A stretch of DNA of 33,926 nucleotides from a virus (lineage: Duplodnaviria; Heunggongvirae; Uroviricota; Caudoviricetes). Made by a program: the position numbers. The stretch is from positions 1-33,926 of IMG/VR virus record IMGVR_UViG_2671180296_000010; one strand, 5' to 3'. Of the stretch, positions 12,001-18,000 are shown piece after piece (the stretch's first letter is position 1; the number at the start of each line of letters is the position of its first letter).

Positions 12001-15000
12001 AAGTGTTCTGGTAAAGCGTGGGATTTTTATTCAGAGCGGGCGGAATATAGGCATTAATAATGTGGTCAGTGAATGGTCAACATTACCCGAATCAGGTAAG
12101 AAAAATAAAGTTTACCTGAAAGAGGTAAATTTACCTGAATCAGGTAAGAAAAGTTTACCCAAATCAGGTAAAGGCACTTACCCGAATCAGGTAAACACAA
12201 AAGACAAACTAACAAAAGACAATATAAAACCTTATTCGTCCGAGAATTCTGGCGAATCCTCTGACCTGCCAGAAAACGACCTTCCTGTGGTGAAAGCGGA
12301 TGCTGCGATTCAGAACGGCAGCAAGTGGGGGACAGCAGAAGACCTGACCGCCGCAGAGTGGATGTTTGACATGGTGAAGACCATCGCGCCATCAGCCAGA
12401 AAACCGAATTTTGCAGGGTGGGCTAACGATATCCGTCTGATGCGTGAACGTGATGGACGTAACCACCGCGACATGTGTGTACTGTTCCGCTGGGCCTGCC
12501 AGGACAACTTCTGGTCCGGTAACGTGCTAAGTCCGGCCAAACTCCGCGACAAGTGGACCCAGCTCGAAATCAACCGAAACAAGCAACAGGCTGGCGTGAC
12601 AGCCGGAAAATCAAAACTCGACCTGACAAACACTGACTGGATTTACGGGGTGGATTTATGAAAAACATCGCCGCACAGATGGTTAACTTTGACCGTGAGC
12701 AGATGCGCCGGATCGCCAACAACATGCCGGAACAGTACGACGAAAAGCCGCAGGTACAACAGGTAGCGCAGATCATCAATGGTGTGTTCAGCCAGTTACT
12801 GGCAACTTTCCCGGCGAGCCTGGCTAACCGGGACCAGAACGAACTGAACGAAATCCGCCGCCAGTGGGTTCTGGCTTTCCGGGAAAACGGGATCACCACA
12901 ATGGAACAGGTTAACGCTGGAATGCGCGTAGCCCGTCGGCAGAATCGACCATTCCTGCCATCACCCGGGCAGTTTGTTGCATGGTGCCGGGAAGAAGCAT
13001 CCGTTATCGCCGGACTGCCAAACGTCAGCGAGCTGGTTGATATGGTTTACGAGTATTGCCGGAAGCGAGGCCTGTATCCGGATGCGGAGTCTTATCCGTG
13101 GAAATCAAACGCGCACTACTGGCTGGTTACCAACCTGTATCAGAACATGCGGGCCAATGCGCTTACTGATGCGGAATTACGCCGTAAGGCCGCAGATGAG
13201 CTTGTCCATATGACTGCGAGAATTAACCGTGGTGAGGCGATCCCTGAACCAGTAAAACAACTTCCTGTCATGGGCGGTAGACCTCTAAATCGTGCACAGG
13301 CTCTGGCGAAGATTGCAGAAATCAAAGCTAAGTTCGGACTGAAAGGAGCCAGTGTATGACGGGAAAAGAAGCAATTATTCATTACCTGGGGACGCATAAG
13401 AGCTTCTGTGCGCAGGACGTTGCTGCGGTAACAGGCGCAACAGTAACCAGCATAAATCAGGCTGCGGCTAAAATGGCGCGGACAGGAATCTTAGTTATTG
13501 ATGGTAAGGTCTGGCGAACGGTGTATTACCGGTTCGCTACCAGGGAAGAACGGGAAGGAAAGGTGAGCACGAATCTGATTTTCAAGGAGTGTCGCCAGAG
13601 TGCCGCGATGAAGCGGGTGTTGGCATTTTATCGCGGCAATTTTCAATAGACTATGTACATAAAAATATCATTTTTTAATACATGTCTAATTATTGGACGA
13701 AATTGGTTTTTGCTTTGGTTTAGTTAGCCTAGCAATCAAGCCAGAGGCAATAATGATGATCCAAGCAATTTGATGCAATGCTACTCCAATATAAGAACCT
13801 TTATAGATAATAAAGGCATAGATCGCTAGAAACGAAATAAATATCCATAACGAAAGTTGATAAATTTTGGCGCGCATATTTAATCCAATCAATCAGAAAG
13901 ACGAGTAATCATAGAGGTACTATCACCCGGGTAACTATTGCTATTATGAACGGATAGGATAGAGGCTTCAATAACATATGCATCAAGTATGATGGAATAT
14001 GTAGATGAAAATGACTTGTGTCAAATTTGTGGAAATGAGTACCATGTTTCTCTGAAATTGATGTCGTTAATGGCTAGTGATAGTGAACTTTTTTACTTTA
14101 TAATTCCTTTGGTTATAACAATAAGGTAAATTTATGAAGAAGATAATATTATTAGCCATGATTATTGGTTCTTTAACAGGTTGCGCTAGTGTGCCACCAT
14201 TGAATTTTTCAACACCTAACGTGGGAGTTAGCCAGAAAAAAATAGATGCTGAAATTAAGTCATTAACGGTATCACTTGCTCGTCCAGATGAGCAGAAAGG
14301 GGATATCACTGCTGGTATGGAGGCTATAACTCCAATTTGGCGTGAATCTTTGCAGGAAGCACTCGACCGAATGACTATTTTTCGTGATAGTTCACCAAAT
14401 ACGGTTAGCTTAAATGTTAAAGTGTTGGCTCTTGACGTTCCTGCTTTTGGTGTTTCAATGACAACTAAAGCAATTGCAAGGTATGAAATAATCAACCGTG
14501 CGAATGGTGATATTATATATACGCAGGATATTGAGTCTACCGGTACTGTTCCAGCCAGTTACGCATTCTACGGTATTGTTCGAGCACGCGAATCTGTTAA
14601 TCGCGCGGTGCAAAACAACATAACGCAGTTCTTGCAAGCATTAGAAAGTGTTGATCTTTCTCGTCCAATGTTTCCTGTTAGGGTAGCTAAATGAAGCGAT
14701 TATTCGTAATTGCTCCACTCTTAGTGTTGGTTGGATGCGCACAAAATATATCGCCAAATAGTTATTCTGTTGGCTCTGTGGGCATGGTTAATCGAACTAT
14801 CGCTGGTACAGTTATTAGTGCCAGGGGGGTTGATATCAGTGGGACTTCCGCGTTAGGCGGGACTGCTGGGGCTGCCGTGGGGGCAACCGCTGGTTCTGCG
14901 CTTGGTGGGGGAGTTCGTTCTAATATCGTTGGTGCCGTTGGTGGTGCAGTCATTGGTGGTATTGCCGGGGCAGCAATCGAATCTTCAGCAACAAAACAAA

Positions 15001-18000
15001 CAGGCATGGAATATGTTGTCGAAACTGAGAATGGGAATTTAATGACCATTGTTCAAGGCAAAGATCCGTTATTTACTCAAGGAAGTAAGGTCCTTGTTTT
15101 ATACGGAAACCCTTCTCGCATAATAACAGACCCGCGTCACTAACATACCTTTTGATTTTGTAAAATCAATTCGTAATAATAAAGTCATCGGAGCTTGAAC
15201 AACTCCGGTGACTTCTGCGCTAAACGGGGACGTTTATGCGCACATACAATCCAAACTCTCTTCTCCCTTCACAGATGCAGAAATGCACCTGCGATTTTTT
15301 GCATCCTGCGTTTGACCTCTGCGGAGGTGAAGCGTGAACCTCCCACAAGACGGTATCAAATTGCATCGCGGTAACTTCACCGCTATCGGTCAGCAGATCC
15401 AGCCTTATCTGGAGGACGGAAAATGCTTTCGCATGGTGCTTAAACCGTGGCGTGAGAAACGCAGTCTTTCCCAGAATGCACTCAGCCACATGTGGTACAG
15501 CGAAATCAGTGAATACCTCATCAGCAGGGGTAAAACGTTCGCCACTCCAGCTTGGGTAAAAGATGCTCTCAAACACACATATCTCGGTTATGAAACCAAA
15601 GACTTGGTTGATGTCGTAACCGGTGAGATCACCACTATCCAGTCGTTACGCCATACCTCCGATCTTGATACCGGAGAGATGTATATCTTCCTGTGTAAGG
15701 TTGAAGCCTGGGCGGTGAATATTGGCTGCCACCTGACTATTCCGCAGAGCTGCGAGTTCCAGCTGCTCCGCGACAAACAGGAGGAGTAATGGCTACACCG
15801 CTTATTCGTGTCATGAACGGACACATCTACAGAGTACCAAATCGTCGTAAGCGTAAACCGGAGCTGAAGCCTTCCGAAATACCAACACTGCTCGGATATA
15901 CCGCCAGCCTGGTTGATAAAAAATGGTTGCGACTGGCAGCAAGGAGGAATCATGGCTGATTTGAGAAAAGCAGCGCGTAGTCGGGAATGCCAGGTAAGAA
16001 TCCCTGGCGTATGTAATGGCAACCCTGAAACGTCTGTACTGGCACATATCCGGCTGACTGGATTGTGCGGCACCGGTACCAAACCGCCAGACCTGATTGC
16101 CACCATTGCATGTTCTGCCTGCCACGACGAAATCGACCGCCGCACACATTTTGTCGATGCTGCATATGCAAAAGAATGCGCGCTGGAAGGTATGGCGAGA
16201 ACACAGGTTATCTGGCTGAAAGAGGGGGTTATTAAGGCGTGAATACCTACAGCATCACATTACCCTGGCCTCCGAGCAATAATCGCTATTACCGCCATAA
16301 TCGCGGGCGCACGCACGTCAGCGCAGAGGGGCAGGCATACCGCGATAACGTCGCCCGAATCATTAAAAACGCAATGCTGGATATCGGCCTGGCTATGCCT
16401 GTGAAAATCCGCATTGAGTGCCACATGCCGGATCGCCGTCGCCGTGACCTGGATAATCTGCAAAAAGCCGCTTTTGACGCACTCACTAAAGCAGGTTTCT
16501 GGCTGGATGATGCTCAGGTCGTTGATTACCGCGTTGTGAAGATGCCTGTTACCAAAGGTGGGAGGCTGGAACTGACCATCACCGAAATGGGGAATGAATG
16601 ATGTTTGAGTTTAATATGGCAGAACTTCTTCGCCACCGCTGGGGGCGTCTGCGCTTATATCGTTTCCCCGGTTCTGTTTTGACCGATTACCGAATACTGA
16701 AGAATTACGCCAAAACCCTGACAGGAGCAGGAGTATGAAGTCAGAGATAACAATCAACTAATACTGTTTTGTTGATTTTTGCTTGTAATTGGCGTTTTGG
16801 TCTGATTTTTGTGGAGTAAGTTGATGCGTGATATTCAGATGGTTCTTGAGCGTTGGGGAGCGTGGGCGGCTAATAATCATGAAGATGTGACCTGGTCGTC
16901 CATTGCCGCCGGTTTTAAGGGATTAATTCCTTCAAAAGTAAAATCTCGCCCGCAATGTTGTGACGATGACGCGATGATTATATGCGGGTGTATGGCTCGT
17001 CTTAACAGGAACAACAGCGATCTGCATGACTTGCTGGTTGATTATTACGTGTTGGGGGAGACGTTCATGGCGCTGGCACGGAAACATGGGTGCTCTGACA
17101 CCTGTATAGGTAAACGCCTTCACAAAGCGGAGGGGATTGTTGAAGGCATGCTGATGATGCTGGGAGTGAGGCTTGAGATGGATCGGTATGTTGAGCGTGA
17201 ATTGCCGGGAGGGAGAACCTCTGTATTTTATCAGCGAAAAAATAGTTTACGATCGTAAAAATCTGCATATCATGATAAGAGTGGTTACATTGCCACGCTG
17301 CTTAACCCGCCGATGCGCGGGTTTTTTTGTACCCAGAATCCTGTGAGCTATACGGAAAGTACACAGAAAGGAAGGTGCGACCACAATTAATAACAAAATC
17401 TTAAAAATTGCACATGGCACTATTAGTTTTCTAAATATTGTGTATTTTTTGTATTGCAGGATGACCCTGTAACGAAGTTTGCGTAACAGCATTTTGCTCT
17501 ACGAGTTTGCCAGCCTCCCCCAGTGGCTGGCTTTTTTATGTCCGTAACATCCTGTGTATCAATAAATGTTGTTGTCTACGTACGTCAAGTAGTCGCATGA
17601 GATCTGACCAGATATGTTAAGGTTGCAGCTCTCTTTGAATATGATTATCATTTTCATTACGTTATTGTTACGTTTATCCGGTGCGCCGTAAAACGCCGTC
17701 CTTCAGGGCGTGGAGGATGTCAAGAATATAGTTATCGTATGGTGCTCAAGGAGTATTGTGTAATATGAAAATAATTATTTTTAGAGTGCTAACTTTTTTC
17801 TTTGTTATCTTTTCAGTTAATGTGGTGGCGAAGGAATTTACCTTAGACTTCTCGACTGCAAAGACGTATGTAGATTCGCTGAATGTCATTCGCTCTGCAA
17901 TAGGTACTCCATTACAGACTATTTCATCAGGAGGTACGTCTTTACTGATGATTGATAGTGGCACAGGGGATAATTTGTTTGCAGTTGATGTCAGAGGGAT

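Follow-up and report, generated by a model that had tools for sequence, protein, structure and literature searches.

Why should a lambdoid prophage carry, in the middle of its early region, two lipoprotein genes that phage lambda does without, and what might their products do for the phage or its host? The question is raised by the IMG/VR virus record IMGVR_UViG_2671180296_000010, of which the whole length, a stretch of 33,926 nucleotides (nt) referred to below as the window, was analysed. Between ren and the nin region of this prophage lies a segment of about 1.5 kilobases (kb) with two genes on the plus strand, here called ORF1 (186 amino acids, aa) and ORF2 (150 aa), preceded by AT-rich DNA in which a hydrophobic open reading frame (ORF) of 68 aa can be read on the minus strand. 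All three ORFs lie where a preliminary description of this DNA had placed them, and the ORF1 stop and the ORF2 start share the tetranucleotide ATGA (14691–14694). The analysis described here leads to the conclusion that ORF1–ORF2 is a fixed two-gene cassette across Proteobacteria, basically a chromosomal envelope module that has been picked up by one lineage of lambdoid prophage early-region DNA.

The evidence for the cassette comes from a scan of one genome per species, which yielded 80 loci with an ORF1 homologue in alpha-, beta- and gamma-Proteobacteria. In 62 of the 80, an ORF2 homologue is located immediately 3' of ORF1 on the same strand; stop and start codons overlap by 4 nt in 40 of these 62 loci and by 1 nt in seven, and nearly all the others are within a few nucleotides of each other. 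The overlap, together with a Shine-Dalgarno-like AGGG inside the 3' end of ORF1, indicates that translation of the two genes is coupled. The earlier suggestion that the two proteins act together is strongly backed by this pairing, which spans three proteobacterial classes and mostly retains the 4-nt overlap. Both genes are far beyond chance ORFs, having hundreds of homologues, and both are under strong purifying selection: in comparisons of the window with Klebsiella oxytoca or Edaphovirga, synonymous differences (pS) of 0.73–0.85, i.e. saturated or nearly so, are accompanied by nonsynonymous differences (pN) of 0.10–0.24.

Apart from the pair itself, no gene family recurs around it across the 80 loci. 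In K. oxytoca it is found with umuDC, an SRAP gene and cold-shock-like genes, close to lacZY, and in Xanthomonas it is located beside pgaABCD. Neither of these contexts is phage-related, which argues for a cellular rather than a phage-specific function. The G+C content of the cassette is below that of its flanks in most hosts (for example, 0.54 versus 0.74 and 0.44 versus 0.58), as would be expected from long-running horizontal movement.

ORF2 is, by sequence and predicted fold, a full-length homologue of the E. coli lipoprotein SlyB, which agrees with the earlier assignment of one of the two proteins to the glycine-zipper type. A phmmer search against all PDB sequences retrieved SlyB (7ojf/7ojg) with an E-value of 1.3e-14, aligning ORF2 residues 2–149 with residues 3–155 of 7ojf_A, and 52 of the 150 residues (~35%) are identical. 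The N-terminus consists of a basic n-region with Lys/Arg, a hydrophobic core and the lipobox LVGC, whose Cys16 is invariant across 20 homologues. In the AlphaFold2 model (20 homologues), a strand is followed by Gly/Ala-rich helices 55–71 and 75–100 and then by a small beta domain; the order of parts, namely lipobox, N-terminal strand, two Gly/Ala-rich helices and C-terminal beta domain, is thus that of E. coli SlyB, and the predicted hairpin aligns with the SlyB hairpin. The sole significant PDB fold match of the model is 7ojf_A, the SlyB13–BamA complex (E-value 2.4e-8, probability 1.00, template modelling (TM) scores 0.64/0.68). Many close homologues of ORF2 have precomputed hits to PF13488 or PF05433 and bear the JGI name SlyB. 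ORF2 is far nearer to SlyB than to YfgH, the other zipper lipoprotein of E. coli, and, judging from its sequence, is a member of a distinct, tightly conserved SlyB subfamily, within which 63–80% identity is shared. Unlike slyB, which stands alone, the genes of this subfamily are nearly always preceded by an ORF1-type gene; the copy in the window differs further in being prophage-borne.

ORF1 has a similar N-terminus (Lys/Arg-containing n-region, hydrophobic core and lipobox LTGC, with Cys17 invariant in the family alignment), so that both plus-strand products are lipoproteins, as had been described. In E. coli, the Lol rule is that Ala at position +2 leads to sorting to the outer membrane; both ORF1 and ORF2 have Ala at this position and should therefore be outer-membrane lipoproteins. 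No Pfam or NCBIfam family includes ORF1, 17 diverse members of its family matching the lipid-attachment motif alone, and no sequence match was found among PDB sequences. Its PHROG (12521) is annotated as of unknown function, as is PHROG 13877, the other one that was matched. The ORF1 family is a compact, strongly conserved one, with 890, 255 and 94 fifty-percent clusters at E-values of at most 1e-3, 1e-10 and 1e-30, respectively, among 1.84 billion representatives; relatives from Xanthomonadales, Alcaligenaceae, Comamonadaceae, Rhodospirillales and other groups are 55–85% identical to the window protein.

The predicted ORF1 model, with a predicted local distance difference test score (pLDDT) of 80.8, is an alpha/beta fold of two helices and four strands that matches outer-membrane lipoproteins that plug or ring envelope machines. 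This model places ORF1 in the LptE/PqiC/PelC-like class of outer-membrane lipoprotein folds. In the tabulated comparison, the entries were 13.7 for XCC0632 (DUF330), 10.5 for PelC, 9.9 for LptE, 9.7 for PqiC, 9.3 for CsgG and 7.2 for TraT. Weak CsgG and Rad52-like matches were all that a fold search against viral structures produced. The tether that follows the lipid-bearing Cys (PPLNFSxPNVG) and a C-terminal PMFP motif are nearly invariant in the family, which is unusual for lipoprotein linkers and therefore suggests that both are docking motifs.

Several names attached to members of the ORF1 family deserve comment. Many NCBI and UniRef entries are labelled "UDP-N-acetylglucosamine acyltransferase", and the record of phage PhiR30_1 labels ORF1 "acyltransferase". 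Neither an acyltransferase nor a left-handed beta-helix profile from Pfam or NCBIfam, as expected for LpxA, matches this 186-aa lipoprotein with its LptE-like predicted fold, and the name looks like a propagated misannotation. In some genomes PGAP calls ORF1 a "YajG family lipoprotein". The family does align with E. coli YajG in hhalign (probability 72.7%, pairwise E-value 3.2e-5), a weak match over 119 columns that include the signal peptide; no YajG hit for ORF1 was found in Pfam or NCBIfam. Membership in the PqiC (ABC_trans_aux, DUF330) family was rejected, as 17 family members gave no Pfam hit beyond the lipid-attachment site and no MCE/Pqi neighbour is conserved. Four fusion proteins (P0254, P0255, P0305 and P0327) gave no functional hint: their extensions are of low complexity or coiled-coil and say nothing about a role, or the fusions are probably errors of gene calling.

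How does the cassette compare with known systems? ORF1 differs from LptE, PqiC, PelC and CsgG in sequence, with only 6–13% identity and no Pfam match, and also in its surroundings: MCE/Pqi or LptD genes were not found beside it, the sole polysaccharide operon seen nearby being pgaABCD in Xanthomonas, and its constant partner is a SlyB-family gene. The closest arrangement is that of yfgH-yfgI in E. coli (srgIL in S. Typhi), in which the gene for a SlyB-like zipper lipoprotein likewise forms an operon with the gene for a second small envelope protein. There, however, the zipper gene comes first, whereas it is second in the cassette, and hhalign shows no relationship between YfgI and ORF1 (probability 1.4%). 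The IncF lipoprotein TraT, which acts in surface exclusion and serum resistance, is a single polypeptide, as opposed to the two proteins of the cassette, to which it has no sequence similarity; in the fold search with the ORF2 model TraT was the next-best match, at a non-significant E-value of 0.24. A two-protein "split TraT" is an analogy only, and neither protein qualifies as a TraT family member, that is, a single lipoprotein with membrane helices and a beta-sandwich that matches Pfam TraT. With Bor and Lom of lambda, Cor of phi80 and Llp of T5, the cassette shares the status of envelope proteins carried as phage accessory cargo; it has no sequence or profile similarity to any of them and occupies a different genome position. 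These four are single genes that are not known to be conserved as chromosomal cassettes across Proteobacteria. On the whole, ORF1 appears to represent an uncharacterised family and ORF2 a new subfamily of a known one, while their pairing, on which literature searches found nothing, appears to be undescribed, with yfgHI as the nearest precedent. The homology and structure searches that had been proposed earlier have thus connected ORF2 with SlyB and ORF1 with the LptE-like fold, but matched neither protein to a known exclusion or conversion protein.

In the window, the pair belongs to a horizontally acquired foreign segment, which fills a variable cargo slot with ren on one side and the ybcN/nin genes on the other. 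Lambdoid homology, seen in more than 160 phage records that match ren, ends at about position 13624, 25 nt ahead of the ren stop codon, and homology with the ybcN region of the phage 82/DLP12 type picks up again at 15147–15151. The foreign segment is thus ~1.52 kb long, and even the last codons of ren have been replaced. Its G+C content is 0.32 in the 484 base pairs (bp) 5' of ORF1 (13650–14133), 0.40 in ORF1 and 0.47 in ORF2, as compared to 0.49 in the rest of the window. The earlier characterisation of an AT-rich insertion between ren and the nin region is borne out by these breaks and by this composition. As in other phage morons, extra genes are found here amid conserved phage genes and deviate from them in base composition. 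Direct or inverted repeats and target-site duplications were looked for at the borders of the segment and none were found; a transposon-like insertion is accordingly unlikely, and mosaic recombination fits better.

The gene to the right of the segment is of the ybcN/phage 82 orf151 type (NCBIfam PRK09741, 1e-83) and only marginally NinB-like by Pfam. The same ren–ybcN junction has other contents in DLP12 and phage 82, as well as in several other relatives: emrE-ybcK-ybcL-ybcM in PhiR34_1, a Rha gene with small ORFs in PhiR5_1, emrE and a hydrolase gene in Lambda_4C10, and two small hypothetical genes in the Stx1a prophage of O157. It is thus a recognised variable cargo slot, of which the lipoprotein pair is one alternative content. 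Lambda itself is not known to carry anything in this slot. A strong 12-bp hairpin without a U-run is found at 15182–15214 (plus strand), in the conserved backbone right of the junction and upstream of ybcN (fold of 15140–15230, z = –3.88). The phage 82 record has a possible regulator-binding site and promoter signals annotated in the matched ybcN (orf151) region.

The window represents a Shiga toxin 1 (Stx1)-converting lambdoid prophage, because stx1A (17765–18712, plus strand; Pfam RIP, 6e-38) and stx1B (18722–18991, plus strand) directly follow the Q antiterminator gene (16809–17258). The combination of cassette and stx1 on one contiguous stretch was found in no complete RefSeq E. coli genome, and the Stx1a prophages of O157 match the window in two pieces, with different cargo in the slot. 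The 1.5-kb segment as such is present at 99% identity or more in 280 of 5426 complete E. coli genomes (~5%), always on the chromosome; 274 of the 280 cover at least 80% of it at that identity, and both frames are intact in nearly all 280. In the index of an assembly collection, a protein identical to ORF1 is recorded for 12,858 blocks. In every E. coli context displayed, the gene order is ren-[pair]-ybcN-ninE-ybcO-rusA-ylcG-Q, but the prophages vary on the immunity side, where at least five different modules occur, and in their late cargo, e.g., a porin gene or lipocalin and YbgA genes. Among 50,697 phage records, PhiR30_1 was the only one with the cassette; no plasmid carries it, ORF1 having given three weak partial hits there. 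The singular phage record, the two chromosomal, non-phage contexts examined in detail and the unconserved neighbours all argue for a general envelope function that has been borrowed by the phage. In a few E. coli strains, insertion sequence (IS) elements have entered the region: an IS5 insertion splits the match to 13650–15143 in CUVET20-1573 (NZ_CP098858.1), and IS3 insertions split the match to the surrounding ren–Q block in CUVET25-1275 and CUVET25-1155; all appear to be sporadic disruptions.

The 68-aa ORF and the 484-bp AT-rich stretch upstream of ORF1 are outside the conserved cassette, as DNA homology with the copies in K. oxytoca, Edaphovirga and Serratia does not extend upstream beyond the ORF1 start codon. 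The putative product has two hydrophobic stretches of about 18–20 residues, with a basic tail. Nothing in Pfam, PHROG or PADLOC matches it, and its database relatives are confined to near-identical copies in E. coli, for most of which an internal ATG was taken as the start (63 aa); the ORF is absent from all other loci of the cassette. PGAP omits it in E. coli 042, whereas some gene callers include it. Without divergent homologues it is indistinguishable from a chance ORF in AT-rich DNA, and we found no support for it as a gene, as which the preliminary description had presented it. Table 1 lists the features of the segment.

Table 1. Features of the cargo segment and its immediate surroundings (window coordinates)
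Feature	Position	Strand	Basis or remarks
Foreign cargo segment (~1.52 kb) in the ren–ybcN slot of the prophage	13625..15147	.	Homology breaks and G+C content
Terminator-like hairpin closing ren, then AAUUUUCAAU	13601..13638	+	Inverted repeat with 12-bp arms; fold –21 kcal/mol, z –2.67
68-aa hydrophobic ORF, TTG start (63 aa from ATG at 13877), doubtful gene	13686..13892	-	ORF listing
Sigma-70-like promoter candidate, GTGATA / 16-nt spacer / TATAAT, 30 nt upstream of ORF1	14077..14104	+	10/12 consensus positions
Shine-Dalgarno-like AAGG, 7 nt ahead of the ORF1 ATG	14123..14126	+	Read from sequence
ORF1, 186-aa outer-membrane lipoprotein (predicted location), LptE/PqiC/PelC-like alpha/beta fold (predicted)	14134..14694	+	Lipobox LTGC, Cys17
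Shine-Dalgarno-like AGGG inside the ORF1 3' end, 7 nt ahead of the ORF2 ATG	14680..14683	+	Read from sequence
ORF2, 150-aa SlyB-family outer-membrane lipoprotein (predicted location)	14691..15143	+	Lipobox LVGC, Cys16
ORF2 Gly/Ala-rich helical hairpin, residues 55–100, predicted membrane-inserted glycine zipper	14853..14990	+	Model and SlyB alignment

Signals for expression of the pair were sought in and around the segment. The hairpin that closes ren may be a tR2-like early terminator that would insulate the cargo from unantiterminated transcription from PR; being co-oriented with the PR operon, the pair would be transcribed in lytic growth in any case. Motifs for sigma-E, RcsB and CpxR were looked for in 13893–14133, by eye only, and nothing convincing was seen. 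Rfam elements were not detected in 13300–15500, where the lone match was a spurious long non-coding RNA below threshold. Immediately 5' of ORF1, a 46-aa ORF without a family match (13989–14129, plus strand) overlaps the promoter candidate; the likeness of its start, MEYVDEND, to the ORF2 motif MEYVVETE is not significant. A decayed ORF2-like remnant in this place was considered, as IEASITYASSMMEYVDEND resembles ORF2 residues 95–113, but was rejected because the ORF2-family profile scores only –1.4 bits; this likeness, and with it a 23-nt repeat (13992–14014 versus 15006–15028), was treated as due to chance.

What, then, could the pair do? It has lately been realised that lipoproteins of the SlyB type constitute a stress system by which the outer membrane is organised into protected nanodomains. 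As related in bioRxiv 10.64898/2025.12.22.696046 (citing Janssens et al.), SlyB oligomerises under stress into disk-like rings around mislocalised phospholipid or around outer-membrane proteins; the same source describes SlyB and YfgH as stress-induced outer-membrane stabilisers and relates the proposal that YfgH forms rings likewise. For an operon that joins a SlyB-like gene to a partner gene, yfgHI offers a precedent (PMC11619404). The interpretation that we favour, and consider to have an even chance of being correct, is that ORF1 and ORF2 make up a two-part outer-membrane lipoprotein complex that stabilises the envelope as a form of lysogenic conversion. By homology with SlyB, ORF2 would be inserted in the outer membrane by its glycine-zipper hairpin and would form rings there, which would separate patches of lipid and outer-membrane proteins from their surroundings. 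ORF1 would be made in a fixed ratio with ORF2 through translational coupling and would dock, as a dedicated partner, on the periplasmic face of the ORF2 assembly, a position that is the most plausible one because the predicted fold of ORF1 is shared with lipoproteins acting as plugs or rings in envelope machines. If the pair is expressed in the lysogen, the latter would gain a sturdier outer membrane, with better resistance to cation depletion, detergents or bile, antimicrobial peptides and possibly serum. An envelope-stabilising role is favoured because the pair is a cellular module in its non-phage contexts and because the slot that it occupies is used for host-type cargo.

Several observations weigh against this interpretation. 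The ORF2 model has a pLDDT of 66.2 and is thus of moderate confidence only, and the Pfam families Rick_17kDa_Anti (PF05433) and Gly-zipper_Omp (PF13488) match ORF2 residues 55–103 below their gathering scores (21.1 versus 24.2 bits and 16.9 versus 25 bits, respectively). Promoter-like sites are no more numerous in the region than in shuffled sequence, and no clear intrinsic terminator (stem and U-run) directly follows ORF2. No PhoP box (KGTTTA-N5-KGTTTA, up to three mismatches) of the kind to be expected for PhoPQ-regulated slyB was found upstream of ORF1 in 13893–14133; a PhoP-dependent promoter is a feature of enterobacterial slyB and not of the whole SlyB family. With slyB and yfgH already present in E. 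coli, a further copy may be superfluous. Finally, solo ORF1-like genes in a phage tail region, near an integrase gene and by a STAND NTPase gene hint at phage-related roles. Such solo genes account for 18 of the 80 loci, the 12 most divergent at 39–48% identity and the other six at 51–63%.

Of the other explanations, superinfection exclusion or receptor shielding survives best, although we regard it as unlikely. According to this explanation, a SlyB-like ring together with ORF1 encloses or immobilises phage receptors (BamA, LamB, OmpC, FhuA), so that incoming phages adsorb or inject poorly or progeny are spared loss on debris, as with T5 Llp. It could draw on the fact that the SlyB structure matched by ORF2 is that of SlyB13 wrapped around BamA, which is a receptor of Stx phages (PMC6020778), stx1AB being present in the window prophage; on the solo ORF1-like genes in a Xenorhabdus prophage tail module and by an integrase gene in Pseudomonas; and on TraT as an example of how a chromosomal ring-forming lipoprotein can be co-opted for exclusion (PMC11733297). 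However, the cassette proteins resemble neither Cor, Llp, Bor or Lom nor any PADLOC model, which leaves unsupported the analogy on which the preliminary description had based its own suggestion of exclusion. Fast-evolving exclusion proteins would also hardly be expected to form a cassette that is 55–85% identical across classes, with unconserved neighbours and with non-phage surroundings in both contexts examined in detail, and that turns up in a single phage record. Moreover, on our reading of the SlyB structure, its rings lie in the membrane plane and on the periplasmic side and would leave the surface loops of receptors exposed, and the head genes in the window, judged by ORF size only, are lambda-like, so that this phage need not use BamA.

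A related and more specific proposal, which seems to us somewhat less probable than exclusion in general, is a two-component outer-membrane ring machine in which ORF2 provides a helical fence and ORF1, with its LptE-like fold, selects the contents. Conserved in Proteobacteria, such a machine would have been co-opted by lambdoid prophages, including an Stx1 phage, to sequester receptors such as BamA, and would constitute a new mechanism of exclusion or surface remodelling.

It is improbable, in our view, that the cassette is a silent passenger, hitch-hiking with the P-ren-nin block by mosaic recombination, poorly expressed, perhaps silenced by H-NS, and without a phenotype. Identity among all E. 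coli copies is 99% or higher, a sign of recent spread rather than long selection in this species, and the AT-rich upstream DNA, the weak promoter evidence and the occasional IS insertions in the segment or the surrounding block could be understood in the same way. A mere passenger would not be expected to have two undamaged frames in almost every one of the 280 genomes and to retain well-spaced Shine-Dalgarno sequences and the overlap that couples the genes, nor would the exact ORF1 protein be expected to be as widespread as it is in the assembly collection.

More improbable still is a role in the lytic cycle, for which the position of the pair is the main argument: it is located inside the early-right operon, on the same strand and between ren and nin, behind a terminator-like hairpin at the end of ren, and no promoter that would convincingly serve the pair alone was found. 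After N antitermination, transcription from PR would take in the pair along with O, P, ren and nin, and the products would reinforce the outer membrane during replication, for example to prevent premature envelope failure or vesiculation before holin-timed lysis. Against this explanation, the other occupants of the slot (emrE, ybcL, ybcM) are cargo of host type, for which a lytic role is not apparent, the cassette is free of phage in most taxa, and lambda itself is not known to have anything in the slot. A toxin–antidote addiction module, with ORF2 as a membrane-perturbing zipper and the upstream ORF1 as antidote, loosely like the entericidin EcnAB lipoprotein pair, would suit the compactness of a unit of two coupled genes, a patchy distribution, G+C below the flanks in most hosts, variable neighbourhoods and the existence of solo ORF1-like genes, but it is far-fetched, considering that ORF2 is, by its sequence, a full-length homologue of a non-toxic stress protein, that conservation is far above that of typical toxin–antitoxin pairs and that no PADLOC or toxin–antitoxin family is matched.

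Whichever role it has, a distinct SlyB subfamily comes with an obligatory, uncharacterised partner lipoprotein that often bears the wrong enzyme name. If the pair does strengthen the envelope or alter surface receptors, it would be a prophage-delivered fitness or resistance trait in pathogenic lineages, and it would offer a tractable entry point into the targeting of SlyB-like rings.

Some individual loci in the scan are unusual. The solo ORF1-like gene of Xenorhabdus koppenhoeferi (55% identity; locus L061, 4986–5549) is located between the genes for the tail assembly chaperone (DUF1799) and the tape-measure protein of a prophage, an unusual site for cargo. In Pseudomonas fuscovaginae (L073, 4992–9729) and in Pseudomonas sp. 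(L078, 2532–5516), solo ORF1-like genes are found by a gene for a 1375-aa nSTAND3 NTPase, in a setting like that of a defence island, and near a phage-type integrase gene, respectively. In two Photorhabdus loci (L047, 6513–7049, and L051, 5962–6321), the ORFs 3' of the ORF1 homologue contain the sequence VHCRTGSLE about every 20 residues, which suggests an array of evenly spaced DNA repeats of CRISPR-like or REP-like type and not a gene. In a Janthinobacterium metagenome-assembled genome (L054, 5567–7374), the ORF2 homologue is split (residues 1–134 and 133–149) by ~1.3 kb that hold a 429-aa ORF, probably as the result of a mobile-element insertion.

Elsewhere in the window, a gene for a eukaryote-like Ser/Thr protein kinase (8433–9476, minus strand; Pfam Pkinase, 1.2e-46) adjoins the region of the cI-like repressor gene (10015–10767, minus strand), with a 153-aa ORF without a family match (9473–9931, minus strand) between the two. 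We take this kinase module by the repressor gene to resemble the Stk kinase module of phage 933W. The window opens (1–2489, minus strand) in a 427-aa ORF that is followed by a 356-aa ORF; by position only, these match ybhC and the integrase gene of the lambda attachment region, as in the cassette-bearing prophage of E. coli 042.

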